A DNA stretch of 64,000 nt from Clostridia bacterium (GTDB lineage: Bacteria; Bacillota; Clostridia; Oscillospirales; Acutalibacteraceae). The notes beneath the pieces are model-generated. The model was not told the DNA's origin. It did no database searches and saw only the letters and a program-made list of their open reading frames with translations. The position numbers and the translations under genes were made by a program. Within the stretch, counting starts at the first letter, position 1, and every line of letters starts with the position of its first letter. Where the stretch lies: contig JAFUQS010000062.1 in the NCBI GenBank assembly GCA_017472225.1, positions 10,825-74,824 of the forward strand. The letters run 5' to 3'. This document shows, piece by piece, positions 1 through 9,563 of the stretch.

Positions 1-1873
1 GGAAGTAGCCCTTGAAAAGACCACAGGGTACTTTTTTGTCTGTTCTGACAACAATTTCACCTGTTTCACCAACAGGACAGGGATTACCGTCAAGGTCAAC
101 AATATCGATATCATATCCGGGAACAGGCTTACCCATTGCACCCGGCTTCGGAGTTGTTCCGATAAGGTTTCCGATTGTAAGGGTGGTCTCAGTCTGTCCG
201 AAGCCTTCCATAATCACAAGACCGGTTGATTTTTGGAACTGATAGAATACCTCGGGATTGAGCGCTTCACCGGCTGTTGTCGCATATCTGATTGATGAAA
301 GATCATACTTTGAAAGATCTTCCTTAATAAGCATTCTGTACATTGTGGGAGGTGCACAGAAGGTTGTGATGTTGTACTTGGCAAACATCGGTAGGATCTC
401 TGAAGCGTCAAATCTGTCAAAGTCATAAGTAAATACTGCACCTTCACTCATCCACTGACCGTAGAATTTACCCCACATTGCCTTACCCCAACCTGTGTCA
501 GAAATTGTAAGATGAAGGTCTGTCGGCTGAACTGAGTGCCAATATTTTGCTGTTACAAAATGACCGAGGGCATATTTATATGAGTGAGTGGCAATCTTGG
601 GATAACCTGTTGTGCCGGAGGTGAAGAACATAAGCATTTCATCATCACCGCAGGCTGTATCCTCTTCACGGTTGAAGATACTTCTGAAGAGCTTATACTC
701 TTCATCAAAGCTGTGCCAGCCTTCTCTTGAGCCGTTGACAATAATTTTAAGGCTGAGTCCGTCATAGCTTTCACTTGCAAGGTCAACCTGATTTGCAGTT
801 TCACCGTCTGAAGTACAAAGGATAGCCTTAACACCGGCAGCCTTGAAACGATACTCAAAATCGTGAACAACAAGCTGATTTGTTGCAGGGATAATAACAG
901 CACCAAGCTTGTGGAGAGCAAGAGCAGTAATCCAGAACTGATAGTGACGCTTGAGAACGAGCATAACTCTGTCGCCCTTGGTGATACCGAGGCTCTTGAA
1001 GTAGTTTGCAGCTCTTGCAGACTCTTTCTTCATATCCTTGAATGTGAAACGTCTTTCTGTCTTGTCGTTTGAAATATGAAGCATTGCAAGCTTATCGGGG
1101 TACTTATCCGCAACAGCATCAACAACATCGAAAGCAAAGTTGAATTTATCTTCATCCTTGAAGCTGATATCCTTGAGAATGCCGTTTTCATCCTCAGTGG
1201 TTTCAACAAACTTTTCAACAACAAGATGGTGCTGTGTTTTTGCAGCAACCTGAGCTTCGTTGACGATCTCCTGAACAGGAGCCTCATCGCCTGCAATAAC
1301 AACAGCGACGAATGTGCAGTCCTGACCGTCAACAGCAATCATGCCGTGAGGCGCAGAGCTCTTATAGTAGATACTGTCCCCTTCTTCAAGGATTTCTGTA
1401 TGCTGACCAATCTGAACCTTAAGCTTACCGGAAAGCACATAGTCAAATTCCTGACCGCTGTGAGTTGTTGTGCTGATAGGCTTGTTCTGAAGCTCTTCCT
1501 TATATTCGTATTTTGCAAGATAAGGTTCAGCAAGCTTATTTCTGAAAAGAAGAGCAAGGTGATTGATTTCAATGCCTTCATCATCTTCCTTTGAAGTGAT
1601 CTTACCCTGTCCCTTTCTTGTTACTGTATATGATGAAAGGTTACTGCTTCTGCCTTCAAGAAGGTCGGTTTTACCAATACCAAACACCTTTGCGCACTTA
1701 TGGATAAAAGAGAAGGGAAAATCATCTGCACCGGCTTCATATGAAACATATTCTTCAAGGCTGATTTCAACCTTTTCAGCCATCTCCTCCTGAGTATAGC
1801 CGGCAATTTCTCGCATTTCCTTAATTCGGAAAGCCACCTCTTTAAGTTCGTTGTTCATTTTGTTGAGTTCCAT
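1..1873 (-). CDS. Fusion protein: XRE-type HTH + cupin domain + AMP-forming acyl-CoA synthetase (medium-chain/ACS-like). The C-terminus lies beyond the left window edge.
   Basis: Absent from the ORF track because there is no stop codon in the window. Manual minus-strand translation from ATG 1873 (SD CAGGAGG at 1884-1890) showed no stop in every stretch checked codon by codon (about 1021-1873) and reads on to nt 1. It gives MELNKMNNELKEVAFRIKEMREIAGYTQEEMAEKVEISLEEYVSYEAG (HTH), HSGQEFDYVLSGKLKVQIGQHTEILEEGDSIYYKSSAPHGM (cupin), then FAFDVVDAVADKYPDKLAMLHISNDKTERRFTFKDM, MFFTSGTTGYPK and MEGFGQTETT (adenylation motifs). The ORF-track entries in 12-1806 are off-frame shadows. Confidence 0.85.
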   Translation of the reverse strand, partial: MELNKMNNELKEVAFRIKEMREIAGYTQEEMAEKVEISLEEYVSYEAGADDFPFSFIHKCAKVFGIGKTDLLEGRSSNLSSYTVTRKGQGKITSKEDDEGIEINHLALLFRNKLAEPYLAKYEYKEELQNKPISTTTHSGQEFDYVLSGKLKVQIGQHTEILEEGDSIYYKSSAPHGMIAVDGQDCTFVAVVIAGDEAPVQEIVNEAQVAAKTQHHLVVEKFVETTEDENGILKDISFKDEDKFNFAFDVVDAVADKYPDKLAMLHISNDKTERRFTFKDMKKESARAANYFKSLGITKGDRVMLVLKRHYQFWITALALHKLGAVIIPATNQLVVHDFEYRFKAAGVKAILCTSDGETANQVDLASESYDGLSLKIIVNGSREGWHSFDEEYKLFRSIFNREEDTACGDDEMLMFFTSGTTGYPKIATHSYKYALGHFVTAKYWHSVQPTDLHLTISDTGWGKAMWGKFYGQWMSEGAVFTYDFDRFDASEILPMFAKYNITTFCAPPTMYRMLIKEDLSKYDLSSIRYATTAGEALNPEVFYQFQKSTGLVIMEGFGQTETTLTIGNLIGTTPKPGAMGKPVPGYDIDIVDLDGNPCPVGETGEIVVRTDKKVPCGLFKGYF

Positions 1874-1910
1874 TTTACTTACGCCTCCTGACAAAAGAAA
1901 ATTTTTAAAC

Positions 1911-1945
1911 AAAAAACTCGTCTCAAAGAATAACTTTGAGACGAG
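1911..1945 (-). terminator. Intrinsic terminator of T-box leader 1
   Basis: Minus-sense CUCGUCUCAAAG-UUAUU-CUUUGAGACGAG (12 bp perfect stem, 1917-1945) followed by U6. Its 5' arm overlaps the T-box antiterminator region. Confidence 0.85.
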
Positions 1946-2190
1946 CAATAAACTAATGTTATACCCGCGGTACCACTCAAATTGCGATTCAAAATCGCCA
2001 CCTCAAGCTCCAACAAGCCCTATGCATTAACGCAGCAATCACGAAAGGTATCTACTTATCAAAGATGTTCGGACCTTCAGCTCAGAAGTGATAGGAAAAT
2101 GAAGGGTTGTTTATCGGCTTTCCAGCACCGCCGACTCTCTGTAAAACGCTGACTTCTTCCGTCTTCGTCATAGCTTTTAATATTTAATTT
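1911..2190 (-). promoter_or_regulatory. T-box riboswitch leader, specifier AUC (Ile)
   Basis: Minus-sense elements in order: K-turn/base AGCUAUGACGAAG...CUUCUGAGCU; AG bulge plus distal loop AGAGAGUCGGCGGUGCUGGAAAGCCGA; specifier loop U-AUC-A directly before the lower helix CUUC (codon at 2090-2092); Stem III GCGAUUUUGAAUCGC; T-box core AAUUUGAGUGGUACCGCGGG (1964-1984) with a UGGU bulge (pairs with discriminator A73); then the terminator. Confidence 0.8.
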
Positions 2191-2196
2191 GATGAC

Positions 2197-2225
2197 ATTT
2201 TAGCACTTTAAGAAATTAAAGTCAA
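2197..2225 (-). promoter_or_regulatory. Sigma-A type promoter for T-box leader 1
   Basis: Minus-sense TTGACT (2220-2225), 17 nt spacer, TAAAAT (2197-2202), preceded by TGc (extended -10). Confidence 0.65.
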
Positions 2226-2244
2226 TAGATTTTTCTCAATTTTT

Positions 2245-3048
2245 TCAGATTTTTTCAATTGAAAACAGCTTCATAGCATTTTTATAAAGGATTTTCTCCT
2301 CCTCTTCCTGTGTAAGCTTCATGGATTTGAAGGCTTTGTATTCTTCTTCATGGCTCCACATAGGAAAATCAGTTCCGAAAACAACCTTATCTGCGCCGTA
2401 AAGTCTGATGAGCTCTCTTACCTCACAGGGCGGAAGCCAATTAAAGGTTGAGCAGCAGTCAACATAAAAGTTTTCATAGTCATGCAGCTTTTCAGCCGCC
2501 TCTTTCCAGCAGGACCAACCGCCGAAATGAGCACCGATAACAGTAAGATTTTTATGCTTTTCCAAAACATTTTTCACTCTGTCCGGATTTGAAAAATCAT
2601 ACCTGATATCTCCCGTATGAAGAAGCACGGGAAAAACACCCTCGCACAAACTGTATATTCTGTCGCACTTAGGGTCATCAATGCAGAATTTTTGAAAATC
2701 AGCATGTAATTTGATGCCCTTGAGACCAAGCTCTTTTATTTTTTCAATGTCTTTTTCAATCTCATAGGAATCAGGGTGCAGCGTGCCAAGACCGGTCAAA
2801 AGTCCGTTTGATTTTTTCACGGTGTCAGCAATGAAGGTGTTTATGGAGTTCACCTGATGAGGAGTTGTTGCAACTGAAAAGACCACATAATGCTTAACTC
2901 CGATTTTATTACCGCTTTCTATAAGTGAAGAATATCTTCCGTCATGGTACATTGCCAAATCATAAAAATCTGCAATCCCCCGCACTGCCCTATCTGCAAT
3001 TTTATCAGGATAAATATGGCAGTGACAGTCAATTATCGGATAATTCAT
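2245..3048 (-). CDS. Amidohydrolase-2 family (ACMSD-like metal-dependent hydrolase/decarboxylase) protein
   Basis: 267 aa. N-terminal IIDCHCHIYP (HxH metal motif), KLHADF, LLHTGD and FGTDFPMW are typical of the PF04909-type TIM-barrel amidohydrolases. Confidence 0.7.
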   Translation of the reverse strand: MNYPIIDCHCHIYPDKIADRAVRGIADFYDLAMYHDGRYSSLIESGNKIGVKHYVVFSVATTPHQVNSINTFIADTVKKSNGLLTGLGTLHPDSYEIEKDIEKIKELGLKGIKLHADFQKFCIDDPKCDRIYSLCEGVFPVLLHTGDIRYDFSNPDRVKNVLEKHKNLTVIGAHFGGWSCWKEAAEKLHDYENFYVDCCSTFNWLPPCEVRELIRLYGADKVVFGTDFPMWSHEEEYKAFKSMKLTQEEEEKILYKNAMKLFSIEKI

Positions 3049-3083
3049 AAATGTTCATCTCTTTAATTTAAATTGAATTTTTT

Positions 3084-3111
3084 CAGGTGCACCGAAAAAT
3101 CGGAGCACCTG
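3084..3111. other. GC-rich intercistronic stem-loop between the ligase fusion and the amidohydrolase
   Basis: CAGGTGC-A-CCGA-AAAA-TCGG-A-GCACCTG. Flanking T4/A4 extend the stem. A U-tract follows it only in the plus sense (AAAATTTTTT), not in the sense of the operon. Confidence 0.5.
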
Positions 3112-3119
3112 AAAATTTT

Positions 3120-5639
3120 TTATGCAGTTTCAACTGAATTTGCTTTCTGAAGGCCGTATTTTTCAATAGCCTCTTCACGCATTTTATATTTAAGAATTTT
3201 ACCGGCAACATTCATCGGGAAGGAATCAACGAAATCAACATATCTGGGAACCTTATGCTTAGCCATATGATCTCTTACATACTGCTTCATTTCATCCCCG
3301 GTCATGCTTTCGCCTTCCTTAAGAATAATGCAAGCAGCAATTTCCTCACCATACTGCTCATCGGGTACACCGATAACCTGAACGTCGCTTACCTTCGGAT
3401 GTGTATAGATGAATTCTTCGATTTCCTTCGGGTAAATATTTTCACCACCACGGATAATCATATCCTTGAGTCTGCCTGTAATACGGTAGTTACCGTCCTC
3501 TGTTTTGCAGGCAAGGTCACCTGTATGAAGCCAACCTTCCTTATCAATTGCGGAAGCTGTTGCCTTGGGCATTTTGTAATAGCCCTTCATAACATTATAT
3601 CCTCGTGCAACGAATTCGCCCGTTACACCAACAGGAAGGTCCTCACCTGTTTCAGGATCAACTATTTTACATTCAATTTCGGGAAGTGCCCTGCCAACAG
3701 TACTTACTCTGACCTCGAGGGAATCATCGGTTGAACTCATGGTACAGCCGGGAGAAGCCTCTGTCTGACCGTAAACAATCGTGATTTCATCCATGTGCAT
3801 CTTGTCAACAACATCCTTCATAACTGAAATCGGACAAGGTGAACCAGCCATAATACCTGTTCTCATGTGTGAGAAGTCAGTTTTCGGGAAATCCGGATGC
3901 TCAAGCATTGCAATGAACATGGTGGGAACACCGTGGAAGGCAGTAATCTTCTCCTGATTGATACAAGCAAGAGACGGCTTCGGTGTGAAATACGGAAGCG
4001 GATAAAGTGTTACACCATGAGTCATTGAAGCGGTCATTGCAAGAACCATACCGAAGCAATGGAACATAGGCACCTGAATCATCATTCTGTCAGCAGTGGA
4101 AAGGTCCATTCTGTCACCAATGCACTTGCCGTTATTAACAACATTGTAGTGAGTGAGCATAACACCCTTGGGGAAGCCTGTTGTTCCCGATGTATACTGC
4201 ATATTACAAACATCGTTCGGGTCAACATTGGCAGCAATTCTGTATACCTCTTCAACGGGAACATTTTCGCTTCTTTCAATCGCTTCTTCCCATGTAAGGC
4301 AGCCTTTTTTCTTGAAACCGACCGTAATAACATTTCTGAGGAACGGAAGACGGCGACAATGGAGAGGCTGTCCCGCTTTTGTTGTTTCAAGCTCAGGACA
4401 AAGCTCTCCGATAATATCGGCATAATGTGAATCACGATAGCCTTCAACAAGAATAAGGGTGTGAGTATCAGATTGTCTGAGGAGATATTCAAGCTCATGA
4501 ATTTTATAAGCTGTGTTAACAGTTACAAGAACAGCACCGATTTTTGTTGCAGCCCAGAAGGCAATATACCATTGCGGAATATTCGTTGCCCATACTGCAA
4601 CATGACTGCCCGGCTTCACACCAAGAGCAAGAAAAGCACGGCAACATTCGTCAACATCATCACGGAACTGGGCGTATGTTCTTGTGTAATCAAGTGTTGT
4701 ATATTTAAAAGCATACTGGTCAGGGAATTCCTCAACCATCTTATCAAGCACCTGAGAGAAGGTCTTTTCAATAAGAGCTTCTTTTTTCCAGACATAATTA
4801 CCTGTGCCTCTGTTGTTGGTGTAAAGATGGCTCTTTTTTCTTGATGGAGCCTGAAACTTTTGCATGAACTGAACAAAATGCGCAAAAATAACATCAATTT
4901 CGGTGAGATCAGGCATCCAATCAGGATTCCATTCAAGAGAAATAAAGCCACTGTAATTTATAGATGAAAGTGCATTGATTACAATGTCAACCGGCACCTC
5001 ACCTTCACCGATAAGGCAATACTCACGCTCACCGTCAATTACTGCTGAGTCCTTAAGATGAACATGCTTGATGTAAGCACCAAGATTTGTGATAGTAGCC
5101 TCAGTATCCTCCTGTTGTTCACAGAATGTATGATAAACATCCCAAAGTGCCGCAATTGAATCACTTGCGAACTCCATAAGAACATCACGCAATGCAGCTG
5201 TGTCAGCAAACATACCGCAGGTTTCAATAAGAATTGTTACATTCTTTTCAGCAGCATAAGAAACAATTTCAGAAAGACAAGCAACTACATTCTCTCTTGC
5301 ATTTTCATCGTTGCCCGAAGCGTAAACTCTTACATAAGGAACACGTATTCCTGCTGCAAAATCAATGTTACGGATAATATACTTTGCATTTTCTTCAACG
5401 CTCTTTGAGGAAATATCTGTACTGATATCAACACAAGGCACAGTAATTCCGGCATCGTTAAGCTTACGCATTGTTGCGGCTGAATTATATTTGTGGAAGG
5501 GACCGTTTTTGTAGGAAAGCTCAGAATCCAGAACATTATGAAGTTCTATACCCTTATAGCCGATTTCTTCTGCAAGAGCTGTGAAATCCTGCCATGAATA
5601 TTCCTTCCAACCGTTAATTGAAAAAGAAAGCTTCATCAT
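3120..5639 (-). CDS. Fusion protein: xylose-isomerase-like TIM barrel (sugar phosphate isomerase/epimerase, AP_endonuc_2-type) + AMP-dependent acyl-CoA synthetase/ligase
   Basis: 839 aa. Residues about 1-265 read GYKGIELH, ILIETCG, WDVYH, HVHLKD, ISLEW (TIM-barrel metal-site pattern). Residues about 280-839 read MQYTSGTTGFPKGVMLTH, YGQTEASP, WLHTGDL, GRLKDMIIRGGENIYPKEIE, GKILK (adenylate-forming superfamily). The SD GAGGAGG lies inside the last codons of the upstream gene, with a 3 nt gap, so the two are translationally coupled. Confidence 0.85.
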   Translation of the reverse strand: MMKLSFSINGWKEYSWQDFTALAEEIGYKGIELHNVLDSELSYKNGPFHKYNSAATMRKLNDAGITVPCVDISTDISSKSVEENAKYIIRNIDFAAGIRVPYVRVYASGNDENARENVVACLSEIVSYAAEKNVTILIETCGMFADTAALRDVLMEFASDSIAALWDVYHTFCEQQEDTEATITNLGAYIKHVHLKDSAVIDGEREYCLIGEGEVPVDIVINALSSINYSGFISLEWNPDWMPDLTEIDVIFAHFVQFMQKFQAPSRKKSHLYTNNRGTGNYVWKKEALIEKTFSQVLDKMVEEFPDQYAFKYTTLDYTRTYAQFRDDVDECCRAFLALGVKPGSHVAVWATNIPQWYIAFWAATKIGAVLVTVNTAYKIHELEYLLRQSDTHTLILVEGYRDSHYADIIGELCPELETTKAGQPLHCRRLPFLRNVITVGFKKKGCLTWEEAIERSENVPVEEVYRIAANVDPNDVCNMQYTSGTTGFPKGVMLTHYNVVNNGKCIGDRMDLSTADRMMIQVPMFHCFGMVLAMTASMTHGVTLYPLPYFTPKPSLACINQEKITAFHGVPTMFIAMLEHPDFPKTDFSHMRTGIMAGSPCPISVMKDVVDKMHMDEITIVYGQTEASPGCTMSSTDDSLEVRVSTVGRALPEIECKIVDPETGEDLPVGVTGEFVARGYNVMKGYYKMPKATASAIDKEGWLHTGDLACKTEDGNYRITGRLKDMIIRGGENIYPKEIEEFIYTHPKVSDVQVIGVPDEQYGEEIAACIILKEGESMTGDEMKQYVRDHMAKHKVPRYVDFVDSFPMNVAGKILKYKMREEAIEKYGLQKANSVETA

Positions 5640-5642
5640 AAT

Positions 5643-7055
5643 TTACGCCTCCTCATATACGATTTTATTGATTGCATTAAGATATGCACGGATACTTGCA
5701 CCAATAATGTCGGTTGAAATACCCTTGCCGGAATAAAGCTTACCGTTATTACGAAGCTTTACAAGTGCAGAGCCCATAGCCTCCTGACCTTCTGTTACGG
5801 ACTGAATCTGGAAGTCGTCAAGCTCATAATGATGACCCACAATCTGTTCAATTGCAAGAAAAGCTGCATCAATGGGTCCGTCACCGCCTGCAAGACCGTT
5901 GATTTTTTCATCGTTTTTGCTCATTGTGATGTTCGCAGTTGCAGAAATAACATTACCGCTATTGATTACATAAGAATCAAGGAAATATGTTGCAGGAACC
6001 TGCAAGGCTGCCGAAGCGATTATGGCGTCAAGCTCCTTTGCACCAACAGGCTTTTTACGGCTGATACGCTTAAATTCTTCATAAACCTTTGACATATCAT
6101 CCTGAGAAAGATCGTATCCGAGAGCCTTTACAGCCTTTGTAACTTCGGAAATATCGTCATGTTCATTAAGAGTGAACTCATTACCGATTGCACCCATAGC
6201 AGAATCAAAAGGAGAGGTTTTACTTCTCTTGGAATTTGCAATCCAATCAATCTGCTTTGAAATTCTGCGGAATTCAGTCATTTTAACTGCAGTTTCAAGC
6301 ATAAATTCATCTGAATGAACCTTAATTGCCTGACAAACAGGAGCAAGGGATGCAGCCTCATTGCCTGAAATTGATGTAACCTTAATTTCTCTGACACCTG
6401 ATTTAATTGCAGAAACACAAAGAGCAGTTGACATACTCATTTCATCGCTGCACTGAATACCTACATTAACATTTTCAGCTGCAGGCACATTGGCATAAAC
6501 ATCGTCTATAAAGGTTGAAATTTCGTCAGCTAGCATGGTGCCTGCTGTGTCACAAAGTGTTACTGTTGCAGCACCTGCCTCAATTGCGGCTGAAACTGCA
6601 TTATAAAGGAAATCAACCTCACTTCTTGTTGCGTCATCAGCGATGAATTCAACATCCTCACAAAGTGATTTTGCCTTTTTAACAAGCTCTTTAATCATTT
6701 CAAGAACCATAGGAGGCTTCTTTTTGCAGATAAATTCCATCTGAACGGTTGAAGTAGGAACAGCAACCTGTATTCTGGGGTGTTTTGCATCCTTGAGAGC
6801 ATCTGCTATTCTTTCAACATCAGCCTCTTCAAGATTGACAGGCACAGCAAGAACACTGTTATTTACACAAGAAGCTATTGACTTGATGAGAAGTACATCT
6901 GTTTTTTCTTTCACAATCTGGGGAAGCTCGATAACGGAAACATTCACTTTATCAAGCAGCTTTGCAATTTCAATTTTCTCCCTGAAACTGAGAGCATAAT
7001 CACTTGACTTTGCAGCTTGCTTTAATGTAATGTCAGCAATTGATATTTTTTCCAT
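5643..7055 (-). CDS. 2-isopropylmalate synthase (LeuA)-like protein lacking the canonical catalytic motifs; the LeuA allosteric/dimerisation domain is retained
   Basis: The ORF-track entry 5643..7211 is over-extended through the T-box. The real start is ATG 7055 (MEKISIADITLK) with SD AAGGAG at 7065-7070. The HMGL-like TIM-barrel scaffold is recognisable, but DTTLRDGEQ reads ADITLKQAAK and the HxH site reads QCS. The C-terminus DDFQIQSVTEGQEAMGSALVKLRNNGKLYSGKGISTDIIGASIRAYLNAINK matches the LeuA_dimer domain. Confidence 0.7.
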   Translation of the reverse strand: MEKISIADITLKQAAKSSDYALSFREKIEIAKLLDKVNVSVIELPQIVKEKTDVLLIKSIASCVNNSVLAVPVNLEEADVERIADALKDAKHPRIQVAVPTSTVQMEFICKKKPPMVLEMIKELVKKAKSLCEDVEFIADDATRSEVDFLYNAVSAAIEAGAATVTLCDTAGTMLADEISTFIDDVYANVPAAENVNVGIQCSDEMSMSTALCVSAIKSGVREIKVTSISGNEAASLAPVCQAIKVHSDEFMLETAVKMTEFRRISKQIDWIANSKRSKTSPFDSAMGAIGNEFTLNEHDDISEVTKAVKALGYDLSQDDMSKVYEEFKRISRKKPVGAKELDAIIASAALQVPATYFLDSYVINSGNVISATANITMSKNDEKINGLAGGDGPIDAAFLAIEQIVGHHYELDDFQIQSVTEGQEAMGSALVKLRNNGKLYSGKGISTDIIGASIRAYLNAINKIVYEEA

Positions 7056-7118
7056 TTCTAAAAACTCCTTTTTGCTTTTATAATCACTTCTATCACTTTT
7101 GCGAAGAGTAATGATAAC

Positions 7119-7156
7119 AAAAAAATCCTTGAAATTACAGAACGTAACTTCAAGGA
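7119..7156 (-). terminator. Intrinsic terminator of T-box leader 2
   Basis: Minus-sense UCCUUGAAGUUAC-GUUCU-GUAAUUUCAAGGA (13 bp, one GU pair) followed by U7. Confidence 0.85.
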
Positions 7157-7395
7157 CGAATAAAATCCGTGGTACCACCTTGTTTACCGCAATATTACGG
7201 TCACTCTTCAAGACTCTGACAAGTCTTTAGCCATGATAACGGGGCATCCGTGACTGCCTACACAACAAATTGCCTTCAACAGTCCTGCTCGGAAATGAGA
7301 CTGAATAATCATCTCGTATCGGTTCGCACCAACCACCGACTCTCTTAAACCAAAGAATAAAAATTCATAATTTCGTCAACGCATTTGTGATATTG
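7119..7395 (-). promoter_or_regulatory. T-box riboswitch leader, specifier CUC (Leu)
   Basis: Minus-sense elements: base UGCGUUGACGAAA...UUUCCGAGCA (K-turn-like GA motif); AG bulge/distal loop AGAGAGUCGGUGGUUGGUGCGAACCGA; specifier loop GU-CUC-A directly before the lower helix UUUC (codon 7297-7299); Stem II GACUG...CAGUC; Stem III AAGACUUGUCAGAGUCUU; T-box core AAACAAGGUGGUACCACGG (7165-7186) with a UGGU bulge; then the terminator. Confidence 0.8.
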
Positions 7396-7401
7396 AAATG
7401 C

Positions 7402-7430
7402 ATTTTATCATAAAGAATAAAAAATGTCAA
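7402..7430 (-). promoter_or_regulatory. Sigma-A type promoter for T-box leader 2
   Basis: Minus-sense TTGACA (7425-7430), 17 nt spacer, TAAAAT (7402-7407), preceded by TGa (extended -10). Confidence 0.7.
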
Positions 7431-7460
7431 CACTTTTACACTTTAAAATTCAAGAATTTC

Positions 7461-8093
7461 TTATTTTGTGCCGAAAATTCTGTCACCTGCATCACCAAGT
7501 CCGGGAACGATATAGCCGTTTTCATTGAGCTTCTCATCAAGCGCAGCACAGTAAACATGAACATCAGGATGTGCTTTTGTAAAAGCTTCAATTCCTTCAG
7601 GTGCAGCAATTATGCACATGAAACGGATTGAACGGGGCTTTCTGAGTTTAATTTGGGACACAGCATCTATACCTGAGCCACCTGTTGCAAGCATCGGGTC
7701 AACAACAAAAACATCTCTTTCGCCGATATCCTTGGGAAGCTTACAATAATATTCAACGGGCTTGAGTGTTTCCTCATCACGGTAAAGTCCGATATGACCT
7801 ATTCTGCATGAAGGTACAAGACTTGTTATACCGTCGACCATGCCGAGACCTGCACGGAGAATGGGTACAACAGCAAGCTTTTTGCCACATATATGCTTAA
7901 CCGTTGTTTTGCAAATAGGTGTTTCAACCTCAACAGCCTCCAAAGGAAGCTCTCTGGTTGCTTCATAACACATAAGAGTTGCAATTTCTGAAACAAGAGC
8001 ACGGAAATCCTTTGAGCTTGTTTCTTTATTTCTGAGTATGGAAAGCTTATGCTGAATAAGCGGATGATCAAAAACAGTTACATTGTTATACAT
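7461..8093 (-). CDS. upp: Uracil phosphoribosyltransferase
   Basis: 210 aa. [35 protein letters not shown] and DPMLATGGS are characteristic of Upp. SD AGGAAA lies 7 nt upstream. Confidence 0.93.
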
Positions 8094-8249: not shown

Positions 8250-9563
8250 ATGAAAAAACAAAAGCGCAAGAAAAAAGGTTGTCTTATTGGTCTCAGTGTT
8301 ATCGCAATTATGCTCGTTGCAGTAATTATTGCCGCTTCGGTTCTGCTTCCCGGAATTGACACAGGCGGATACCGTTACATCGCAATCAATGCAGGAACAT
8401 CCTTCCTGAAAAAACAATCGAGCAGTGAAGTTGACGCACTGCTTCAAAAAACAGGCGGCTTCATAAAGGGTGTATGCCACCCGAATGAAAATTATGAGCA
8501 AATCAAGGACGCCAACATCGAATGGGTGAGATTTGATCTTACTTCACTTCCTTATGACGAAAACGGCAACCTTACACAGGGATATAAAGACTTCAAGGAG
8601 CGTGCCAAGGGTTATGCCGACAACGGAATGAAGGTTATGTGCGTCACCCAATATCCTGAAGTGTACATAGAAGCGGGACTCGACCCGAGAGAGGCTGCAA
8701 GCAAAACAAAAATTCAGGAATATGCCCGTTTCATTGCTGAGGATCTTCAGGGAATCGTTCACGCTTTTCAGATTACAAACGAAATGGGTATTGAGCATTT
8801 CACTCTTCCGCTGACTCTCGATGAAGCTGCAGAATATATCGGCATACAGCTTGAAGCCATGTACGATGTCAGAGGTGATATAATCATCGGCTTCAACTGT
8901 GCCGGTGGCGCAATTTATACACTCGTTGAAAAAATGCAGCCCTACCTTGAATACTGTGACTATGTTGCCCTTGATCTTTATCTCGGTTGCTTTGAAAACA
9001 TGTTCAAGGACATATGGGTATATAACGGTATTCTCAGATATCTGTGGAGCTACACCGGAAAGCCCATTATTCTTAATGAATTCGGCTACATGGGATACGG
9101 TGATGTTAAAAGCGATGAGCAAAAGCAGGAAATTCTGCGTACCTACGGTGTTGAAAGTGAAGAAGAAGCAAGAAAGGATATATTCGCTTTTATCGATAAT
9201 CTGCCCAAGGATTTCAAGGAGCATATGCTGAGTCTTGAATATTCAGATGAAAAAGAACTTGCAGACAAGCTGTTTGACACAGAACTTGCCAATCATCTAT
9301 ACAGAGAAATTCAGGGTGGTTATCAATTAACGGACTACCGCCATACTCCTGAGGATCAGGCAAGATTCTTCACAGATACCATTGCGGGAATAAGAGAACT
9401 CGATTTCCTTTGCGGTGCAATTGTTTATTGCTACAGCGACAGTGATGCCTGTTATATATGCGGACAGGAGGATTGCCCGATTGAAACCGGATGGGGGCTT
9501 GTGGATTTACACGGTGAACCAAAGCCGGCATACTATGCCGTTCAGAAAGCATTTGAAAACTGA
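8250..9563 (+). CDS. Membrane-anchored glycoside-hydrolase-like protein (clan GH-A TIM-barrel pattern)
   Basis: 437 aa. One N-terminal TM helix. Candidate acid/base ITNEMG and nucleophile ILNEFGY are spaced as in GH5-like enzymes. The family is not resolved by eye. Confidence 0.4.
   Translation: MKKQKRKKKGCLIGLSVIAIMLVAVIIAASVLLPGIDTGGYRYIAINAGTSFLKKQSSSEVDALLQKTGGFIKGVCHPNENYEQIKDANIEWVRFDLTSLPYDENGNLTQGYKDFKERAKGYADNGMKVMCVTQYPEVYIEAGLDPREAASKTKIQEYARFIAEDLQGIVHAFQITNEMGIEHFTLPLTLDEAAEYIGIQLEAMYDVRGDIIIGFNCAGGAIYTLVEKMQPYLEYCDYVALDLYLGCFENMFKDIWVYNGILRYLWSYTGKPIILNEFGYMGYGDVKSDEQKQEILRTYGVESEEEARKDIFAFIDNLPKDFKEHMLSLEYSDEKELADKLFDTELANHLYREIQGGYQLTDYRHTPEDQARFFTDTIAGIRELDFLCGAIVYCYSDSDACYICGQEDCPIETGWGLVDLHGEPKPAYYAVQKAFEN

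Follow-up and report, generated by a model that had tools for sequence, protein, structure and literature searches.

Leucine- and isoleucine-specific T-box leaders before acyl-CoA ligases: a probable branched-chain amino acid salvage regulon in gut Clostridia

Branched-chain short fatty acids are abundant in gut and rumen, and it has been established since the 1960s that anaerobes of both habitats require or take up isobutyrate, isovalerate and 2-methylbutyrate. To our knowledge, the bacterial genes and the regulation of this assimilation are poorly defined. The subject of this report is a 64,000-nucleotide (nt) stretch of a Clostridia bacterium genome (Acutalibacteraceae; contig JAFUQS010000062.1, positions 10,825 to 74,824), referred to throughout as the window, in which two T-box leaders, one specific for leucine (Leu) and one for isoleucine (Ile), each precede a gene for an acyl-coenzyme A (acyl-CoA) ligase. 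Genes for a ferredoxin oxidoreductase and an aminotransferase follow just past the window's left edge. Judged by gene content, leader sequence and their recurrence in relatives, these genes probably form a salvage regulon, gated by tRNA charging, that would turn branched-chain short fatty acids of exogenous origin into branched-chain amino acids.

Each component has described counterparts. The accepted route to isoleucine in M. ruminantium runs from acyl-CoA, CO2 and reduced ferredoxin to a 2-oxo acid that is then transaminated, and in rumen anaerobes reductive carboxylation of 2-methylbutyrate is accepted as a physiological source of isoleucine (PMC2812497). The locus resembles the anabolic VOR-type 2-oxoacid:ferredoxin oxidoreductase (VOR) of rumen bacteria and methanogens in its delta, alpha, beta and gamma subunits, with an alpha subunit above the VorB cut-off. 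It differs from the known VOR route in that ligase, VOR and branched-chain aminotransferase (BCAT) are clustered in bacteria and wired to amino-acid-specific T-boxes, and in that a conserved P-loop protein precedes VOR. Among ligases, the closest described systems are MacsMa and MbcS, for both of which 2-methylbutyrate and further branched short acids are reported as substrates (PMC10455477; PMC10026030). The ligase domain of the Ile unit, LIG2, aligns end to end with MacsMa and has MbcS as its best NCBIfam model. Unlike either enzyme, it carries an N-terminal XRE-type helix-turn-helix (HTH) and cupin extension, stands under T-box control and shares an operon with VOR and BCAT.

The leaders share with the RF00230 T-boxes of Firmicutes leuA/ilv-leu, synthetase and transporter genes the K-turn, specifier loop, AG bulge, UGGN bulge and competing terminator. 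A CUC specifier before a leuA-family gene is also already known, as in Geobacter leuA (PMC2700814). What distinguishes them from known T-box regulons is the identity of the gated genes: acyl-CoA ligases, a dead LeuA and a ferredoxin oxidoreductase. This LeuA paralogue, pseudo-LeuA, shares with LeuA the two-domain fold and a well-preserved LeuA_dimer domain, but it lacks the metal ligands and the substrate Arg and is always translationally adjacent to TIM::LIG1, a fusion of a TIM barrel to the second ligase, LIG1. A literature search, with subscription journals and regulon databases outside its scope, returned nothing that describes the TIM::ligase fusion, a dead LeuA or clusters of ligase, VOR and BCAT under T-box control. 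The RNA elements and the chemistry are known; new is their assembly, that is, a clustered route with specific T-boxes, a TIM-fused ligase family, a dead LeuA and HTH-cupin::ligase fusions.

In the proposed scheme, an uncharged cognate tRNA would cause the leader to form its antiterminator, and the unit would be read through. For isoleucine, the MacsMa/MbcS-like synthetase would use ATP to convert 2-methylbutyrate to its CoA thioester, the four-subunit VOR would reductively carboxylate this acyl-CoA to 2-oxo-3-methylvalerate, and BCAT would then yield isoleucine. The Leu unit would supply LIG1, a second and unrelated ligase presumably acting on isovalerate, with the dead LeuA paralogue as its leucine-sensing regulatory partner. 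Relatives would add a third unit, in which a valine (Val) T-box controls a paralogous ligase, presumably for isobutyrate. We infer both the reductive direction of VOR and the induction of the units by starvation.

The leaders provide the first line of evidence. The original prediction, made from the window's letters, described two minus-strand units, each with a promoter, a full T-box and a strong terminator, and this description is borne out by the Rfam covariance model, by promoter and terminator scans and by folding (Table 1). The Leu leader scores 121.2 bits against RF00230 (gathering score 93) and the Ile leader, found in E-value mode, 89.7 bits (E 3.7e-20), marginally short of that score, with model positions 1-219 covered in both; a purpose-built Stem I model, R1, gives 91.8 and 81.7 bits, respectively. 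All T-box elements are seen in the Ile leader, which is kept in 23 related loci. The specifiers read earlier as CUC-A and AUC-A are the same codons that the covariance-model alignment assigns. The UGGU claimed for both antiterminators was likewise read in both T-box sequences, where it lies in a 7-nt bulge; such a bulge pairs with the A73-CCA acceptor end of tRNA. When the T-box region of either leader is folded alone, the bulged antiterminator forms, and its 3' strand doubles as the terminator's 5' arm. On these features the Leu leader is a genuine T-box and the Ile leader very probably one too, with antiterminator and terminator predicted to be mutually exclusive. The terminator scan also agrees with the prediction that none separates the two units, as it found no terminator-like site between the amidohydrolase stop (2245) and the Ile promoter (2225).

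A second line of evidence comes from the genes behind the Ile leader. The predicted HTH-cupin::acyl-CoA synthetase fusion, HTHcup::LIG2, agrees with its Pfam domains; the first 624 of its 758 amino acids (aa) are encoded inside the window, and the full gene spans L001:11176-13452. Genes past window position 1 were read on this source contig (L001; ENA ERZ28654512, scaffold_377), where the same-strand order after HTHcup::LIG2 is P-loop, Fer4, POR_N/PFOR_II, TPP_enzyme_C, POR gamma and Aminotran_4. The oxidoreductase partner, expected to lie outside the window, is thus found just past its left edge, where a four-subunit enzyme of the VOR type belongs to the Ile unit (~0.5-4.9 kb beyond window position 1). 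Its alpha subunit scores 542.7 bits with the NCBIfam VorB subfamily model, above the cut-off of 399; beta, gamma and delta match generic 2-oxoacid:ferredoxin oxidoreductase models only, under their cut-offs. The aminotransferase exceeds the cut-offs of both NCBIfam IlvE (508.5 bits, cut-off 307) and TIGR01123 (418.8, cut-off 250). LIG2 matches the MacsMa structure (PDB 3ETC) with 630 bits (E 5e-188), query residues 221-756 aligning with chain residues 30-571, and MacsMa, from Methanosarcina acetivorans, prefers 2-methylbutyrate (PMC10455477). The model that fits LIG2 best in NCBIfam describes the S. aureus branched-chain acyl-CoA synthetase MbcS. Both LIG1 and LIG2 retain the TSGTTG.PK, GQTE and TGD motifs and the C-terminal catalytic Lys. 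Going by these assignments, the Ile T-box governs a predicted ligase, VOR and BCAT, which is the enzyme set needed to convert 2-methylbutyrate to isoleucine.

Specifier and gene also match. A first tally used a motif-and-pairing heuristic checked against Rfam alignments of the window and of locus L027. A Stem I covariance model was then built from 61 leaders and used to search 1.33 Mb, and its 98 hits were tallied by first downstream gene. Compensatory changes occur in 18 of 20 Stem I pairs among the 61 leaders, with the basal helices paired by construction and used for selection, and the CUC, AUC and GUA specifiers fall in identical alignment columns. Before pseudo-LeuA, 53 of 55 hits carry CUC; the others are L025, which reads CUG by eye, and L033, a low-scoring hit with uncertain alignment. 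The locus L084, from a closed metagenome-assembled genome (MAG), is also listed among the leaders before pseudo-LeuA. HTHcup::LIG2 genes are preceded by AUC in 23 cases, GUA in 11 and GUC in 1. Where HTHcup::LIG2 paralogues stand in tandem, the first has an Ile T-box, and the second, followed by VOR, has a Val T-box. In a tree of the LIG2 paralogues, Ile and Val types did not separate cleanly into clades in all lineages.

The same matching extends to differently arranged operons. CUC precedes three operons ordered P-loop-Fer4-VorABG-BCAT-pseudoLeuA-TIM::LIG1-AH2 (AH2, the amidohydrolase), and in Ruminococcus-type loci a single Leu T-box stands before pseudoLeuA-TIM::LIG1-BCAT-P-loop-Fer4-VorABG-HTHcup-LIG2. 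Across 80 genomes the pairing of specifier and gene is almost invariant. A salvage system for isovalerate, 2-methylbutyrate and isobutyrate predicts just this pattern of one switch per amino acid and one ligase per switch, with a common VOR and BCAT.

Table 1. Features of the Leu and Ile units. Positions are those of the window unless prefixed by L001, the source contig; lengths are in amino acids.
Feature	Position	Strand	Description
Leu-unit promoter	7402..7430	(-)	TTGACA-17-TAAAAT, TG extension, 11/12 consensus matches
Leu T-box leader	7149..7388	(-)	RF00230; specifier CUC-A 7299..7297; T-box sequence GGUGGUACC ~7178
Leu-leader intrinsic terminator	7125..7157	(-)	hairpin + U-tract; overlaps antiterminator 3' strand; -17.8 kcal/mol, z -6.6
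pseudo-LeuA, 470 aa	5643..7055	(-)	Pfam HMGL-like + LeuA_dimer
TIM::LIG1, 839 aa	3120..5639	(-)	AP_endonuc_2 + AMP-binding + AMP-binding_C
Amidohydrolase_2 enzyme, 267 aa	2245..3048	(-)	PF04909, 115.8 bits; HxH...H...D motif intact
Ile-unit promoter	2197..2225	(-)	TTGACT-17-TAAAAT, TG extension, 10/12 matches; kept in close relatives
Ile T-box leader	1934..2180	(-)	RF00230; specifier AUC-A 2092..2090; T-box sequence AGUGGUACC ~1976
Ile-leader intrinsic terminator	1916..1946	(-)	hairpin + U-tract; -20.4 kcal/mol, z -7.5
HTHcup::LIG2	1..1873, runs off window	(-)	HTH_3/HTH_19 + Cupin_2 + AMP-binding
P-loop protein, 220 aa	L001:13567-14229		~0.5-1.2 kb beyond window position 1; GHYGSGKT
VOR delta subunit, 68 aa	L001, after P-loop gene		2x[4Fe-4S] ferredoxin-like
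VOR alpha, 354 aa	L001, after delta gene		POR_N/PFOR_II
VOR beta, 252 aa	L001, after alpha gene		TPP_enzyme_C
VOR gamma, 178 aa	L001, after beta gene		POR
BCAT, 355 aa	L001, after VOR gamma gene		class-II IlvE, Aminotran_4

The Leu unit opens with pseudo-LeuA, which the original prediction had called catalytically degenerate. Motif losses against N. meningitidis LeuA support that description: KQAAK stands in place of RDGEQ and QCSDE in place of HCHND, while GERAGN is gone, so that the metal ligands (the Asp of RDG and the His-x-His) and the substrate-binding Arg are lost. The best NCBIfam equivalog score is 318.6 bits, under the LeuA cut-off of 532. The C-terminal LeuA_dimer allosteric domain (PF08502) is present with 104 bits, and among 73 family members it is the better conserved part, with a mean column identity of 0.81 versus 0.57 for the barrel and at least 95% conservation in 48 of its 130 columns. 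No conserved replacement motif was found at the old LeuA active site in these 73 members, among which the positions of the lost residues vary. An AlphaFold model (predicted local distance difference test, pLDDT, 80) superimposes on the LeuA catalytic domains 3RMJ and 3EWB with a root-mean-square deviation of 1.8 Å. By alignment and model, pseudo-LeuA is a predicted pseudo-enzyme of the LeuA fold that keeps the ligand-binding module. A leucine-responsive regulatory subunit is the most economical reading of this protein because the barrel is dead, the allosteric domain is kept and its adjacency to TIM::LIG1 is obligate and coupled. We tentatively suggest that it might act as a leucine sensor. 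Its entries in NCBI carry the names 'hypothetical protein' or 'regulatory domain-containing protein'.

The start codon of TIM::LIG1 lies only 3 nt past the pseudo-LeuA stop codon. Pfam and NCBIfam agree with the predicted presence of a TIM-barrel::AMP-ligase fusion and an amidohydrolase-2 enzyme in this unit. The fusion joins a xylose-isomerase-like TIM barrel (PF01261) to a complete AMP-forming ligase. The barrel is modelled confidently (pLDDT 90), and its nearest structures are the Art22 isomerase, AsbF and sugar epimerases, at a template modelling score of ~0.7. A metal tetrad, E139/D167/H194/E236 (E-D-H-E), is present in the window TIM domain and most relatives; of 181 family members, 29 have Lys at the E139 position. 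The metal motifs of the amidohydrolase read IDCHCH, GAHFGG and FGTDFP, and no characterised close relative of it was found by sequence search. For both the TIM domain and the amidohydrolase, sequence and fold searches returned generic or uncharacterised neighbours only (Art22, AsbF, sugar epimerases, BB4693).

Two further observations concern the evolution and naming of the fusion. Over 181 sequences the ligase part of LIG1 (3120-4770) has an unusually high mean column identity of 0.87, versus 0.60 for the fused TIM domain; both the TIM domain and the pseudo-LeuA barrel (0.57) diverge much faster than the LIG1 ligase within the same genomes. TIM::ligase fusions form more than 120 clusters at ≥70% identity, all named 'AMP-binding protein' or similar.

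Conservation of the neighbourhood, which the original prediction had marked for checking, is a third line of evidence. A TIM-domain profile scan of species-representative genomes confirmed at least 597 stretches, and 80 loci were compared. Nearly all come from uncultured Acutalibacteraceae, Oscillospiraceae, Ruminococcus, Christensenellaceae and other Clostridia of human, ruminant and other guts; Oscillospirales and Christensenellales are among the lineages with the cluster, in gut and rumen. The search for a cultured host gave MAGs only, one of them a closed 2.44-Mb contig. By tblastn synteny, pseudo-LeuA is directly upstream of TIM::LIG1 wherever sequence covers it, and the HTHcup::LIG2 - P-loop - Fer4 - VorABG - BCAT cluster is linked in at least three arrangements. 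In each of the 33 loci where the ferredoxin and VorABG genes are linked, the P-loop gene comes before them. The amidohydrolase, an accessory gene, follows TIM::LIG1 in about half of the loci. All-against-all clustering of neighbouring open reading frames (ORFs) revealed no further conserved gene family near the loci.

The HTH-cupin domain also occurs unfused. In Ruminococcus-type loci it is a separate 183-aa gene (L060:16941-17492; also in L070, L083, L073, L078 and L065). It is followed there by an unfused LIG2-like ligase ~50% identical to the window LIG2, a natural fission of the fusion. That some loci encode HTH-cupin on its own speaks for a link to the ligase that is functional and not accidental.

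The original prediction had proposed that the ligases activate branched short acids for reductive carboxylation. VOR and BCAT, the similarity to MacsMa, the conserved specifiers and the Leu-gated VOR operons support this proposal, as far as sequence can speak to function. Several observations weigh against it. The Ile leader and most Ile and Val T-boxes of relatives score below the Rfam gathering score. LIG2, at 450.9 bits, is far under the MbcS equivalog cut-off of 850. For LIG1, no close relative is characterised and the best model is the generic PRK12583 (717 bits, under the cut-off of 832), and for this reason we infer isovalerate solely from the Leu specifier and the operon partners; on balance, isovalerate would be its substrate. 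The terminator of the Ile T-box stands ahead of VOR and BCAT in the window's lineage, and therefore starvation for Leu only should raise the Leu ligase and not the carboxylating enzyme. This wiring is awkward for a self-contained Leu route unless there is leaky read-through or a second VOR elsewhere. Other lineages avoid the problem by having VOR under a Leu T-box. Finally, the simple pathway leaves the TIM domain and the amidohydrolase jobless.

In the first alternative, the Leu unit would start from a different precursor of leucine, for example a branched acid of the hydroxy-, oxo- or conjugated kind. Pseudo-LeuA, the TIM domain, the ligase and the amidohydrolase would convert it jointly, with the TIM barrel and the amidohydrolase as true pathway enzymes. 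The E-D-H-E tetrad in a confident xylose-isomerase-like fold and the intact HxH...H...D of the amidohydrolase would fit such chemistry, as would a LIG1 that is unrelated to the MacsMa-like LIG2 and lacks characterised close relatives, in a unit not directly coupled to VOR in the window's lineage. Elsewhere, however, the Leu T-box drives VOR, BCAT, pseudo-LeuA and TIM::LIG1 as one operon. Moreover, the amidohydrolase is missing from about half of the loci, the first TIM metal ligand is replaced by Lys in some members, and pseudo-LeuA has acquired no conserved replacement active site. We consider this alternative improbable, though the most probable of the three.

A second alternative is that the acyl-CoAs prime branched-chain membrane lipids, as with S. 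aureus MbcS, and that VOR and BCAT are neighbours with another role or run oxidatively. MbcS is the best NCBIfam model for LIG2, MbcS is reported to support branched-chain fatty acid synthesis (PMC10026030, PMC11167679), and the acyl-CoA products could serve both purposes. Control by T-boxes that sense charging of tRNA-Leu, -Ile and -Val, with one specific switch per ligase, is hard to square with lipid priming. VOR and BCAT share the operon in many lineages, and the clustering of neighbouring ORFs gave no conserved fatty-acid synthesis genes nearby. Lipid priming as the main role is accordingly a minor contender, with a low probability.

T-boxes turn genes on when the cognate tRNA is uncharged. 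A catabolic cluster, in which BCAT and VOR break branched-chain amino acids down to acyl-CoAs while the ligases serve fermentation or acid recycling, is highly improbable: VOR-type enzymes are reversible and related Clostridium sporogenes enzymes are reported to yield branched-chain acids (bioRxiv 10.1101/401489), but T-boxes switch on at amino acid scarcity, the opposite of catabolic need, AMP-forming ligases drive acid to acyl-CoA and conserve no energy in reverse, and no conserved phosphotransacylase/kinase or CoA-transferase gene was found nearby by the neighbouring-ORF clustering.

Returning to salvage by reductive carboxylation, a more elaborate version would add a second layer of sensing. 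In that version Leu, Ile and Val T-boxes would gate the matching ligases, the dead LeuA, retained only as an allosteric subunit that binds leucine, would throttle the isovalerate ligase, and the HTH-cupin ligases would be BirA-like enzyme-repressors reporting acid availability. We regard the two-layer arrangement as possible but less likely than not. An operator for the HTH domain was searched for upstream of the Ile unit, and no conserved candidate was found. A weak 11-nt direct repeat (TTTTCTCAATT / TTTTTTCAATT, positions 2231-2260, 19 nt spacing) and an A/T-rich tract lie upstream of the Ile-promoter -35 element. Neither is conserved in relatives, and for this reason the repeat is probably UP-element-like and not an operator.

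The P-loop protein was considered as a NifH-like ATP-driven electron donor and rejected on sequence. NifH carries a cluster ligand next to its switch-II motif; the P-loop protein has only two Cys, neither beside its DIGGDD switch-II-like motif. Its similarity to CbiA/ParA is sub-threshold only, and NCBI names it 'hypothetical protein'. The exact sequence of the 758-aa HTHcup::LIG2 was recorded from ENA only, and its neighbours have consecutive NCBI accessions (MBQ8503721, MBQ8503722, MBQ8503724), so the NCBI annotation of this MAG may have passed over the gene or treated it as a pseudogene.

Standard annotation under-calls such leaders. A gathering-threshold Rfam scan misses the window Ile T-box, and in seven loci (L027, L030, L081, L025, L022, L060 and L052) it gives 1 T-box versus 16 T-box sequences by motif scan. 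Divergent from the Leu unit, on the other strand, another AUC (Ile) T-box was seen at L037:8116-8224 (-) and L043:883-992 (-); the L037 ORF behind it (4871-7990) is isoleucyl-tRNA synthetase-like by length and N-terminal sequence only.

Housekeeping genes make up the remainder of the window: upp, RNase H, YfhO, a PHP protein, a DcuC-family carrier, alpha-amylase, an MFS transporter, uvrA/uvrB, radC, pfk, dnaE, NFACT, NIF3, trmK, transketolase, mutS/mutL, miaA, divIVA, sepF and whiA. A 437-aa ORF divergent from upp (8250-9563, plus strand) has no Pfam match and is domain-less on the source contig too.

The locus offers a compact set of ligase, VOR, aminotransferase and T-box genes, conserved in several hundred species-level genomes, that lends itself to cloning, to assays and to metagenome searches. 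With it, acyl-CoA ligases and a ferredoxin oxidoreductase join the known range of T-box-controlled genes. Present annotation names the proteins 'hypothetical protein', 'AMP-binding protein' and 'amidohydrolase'; the first two names are blank or misleading, and the LeuA look-alike could be miscounted as leucine prototrophy. The cluster is a candidate genetic basis for cross-feeding in the gut by way of branched-chain fermentation acids, and for what 'isoacid' supplements in feed bring about. If the two-layer version of sensing is correct, a biosynthetic enzyme would have given rise to a pseudo-enzyme that senses feedback for the very salvage route by which it was replaced. In that case, too, these uncultured gut Clostridia would build their branched-chain amino acids mainly from the fermentation acids of their neighbours.

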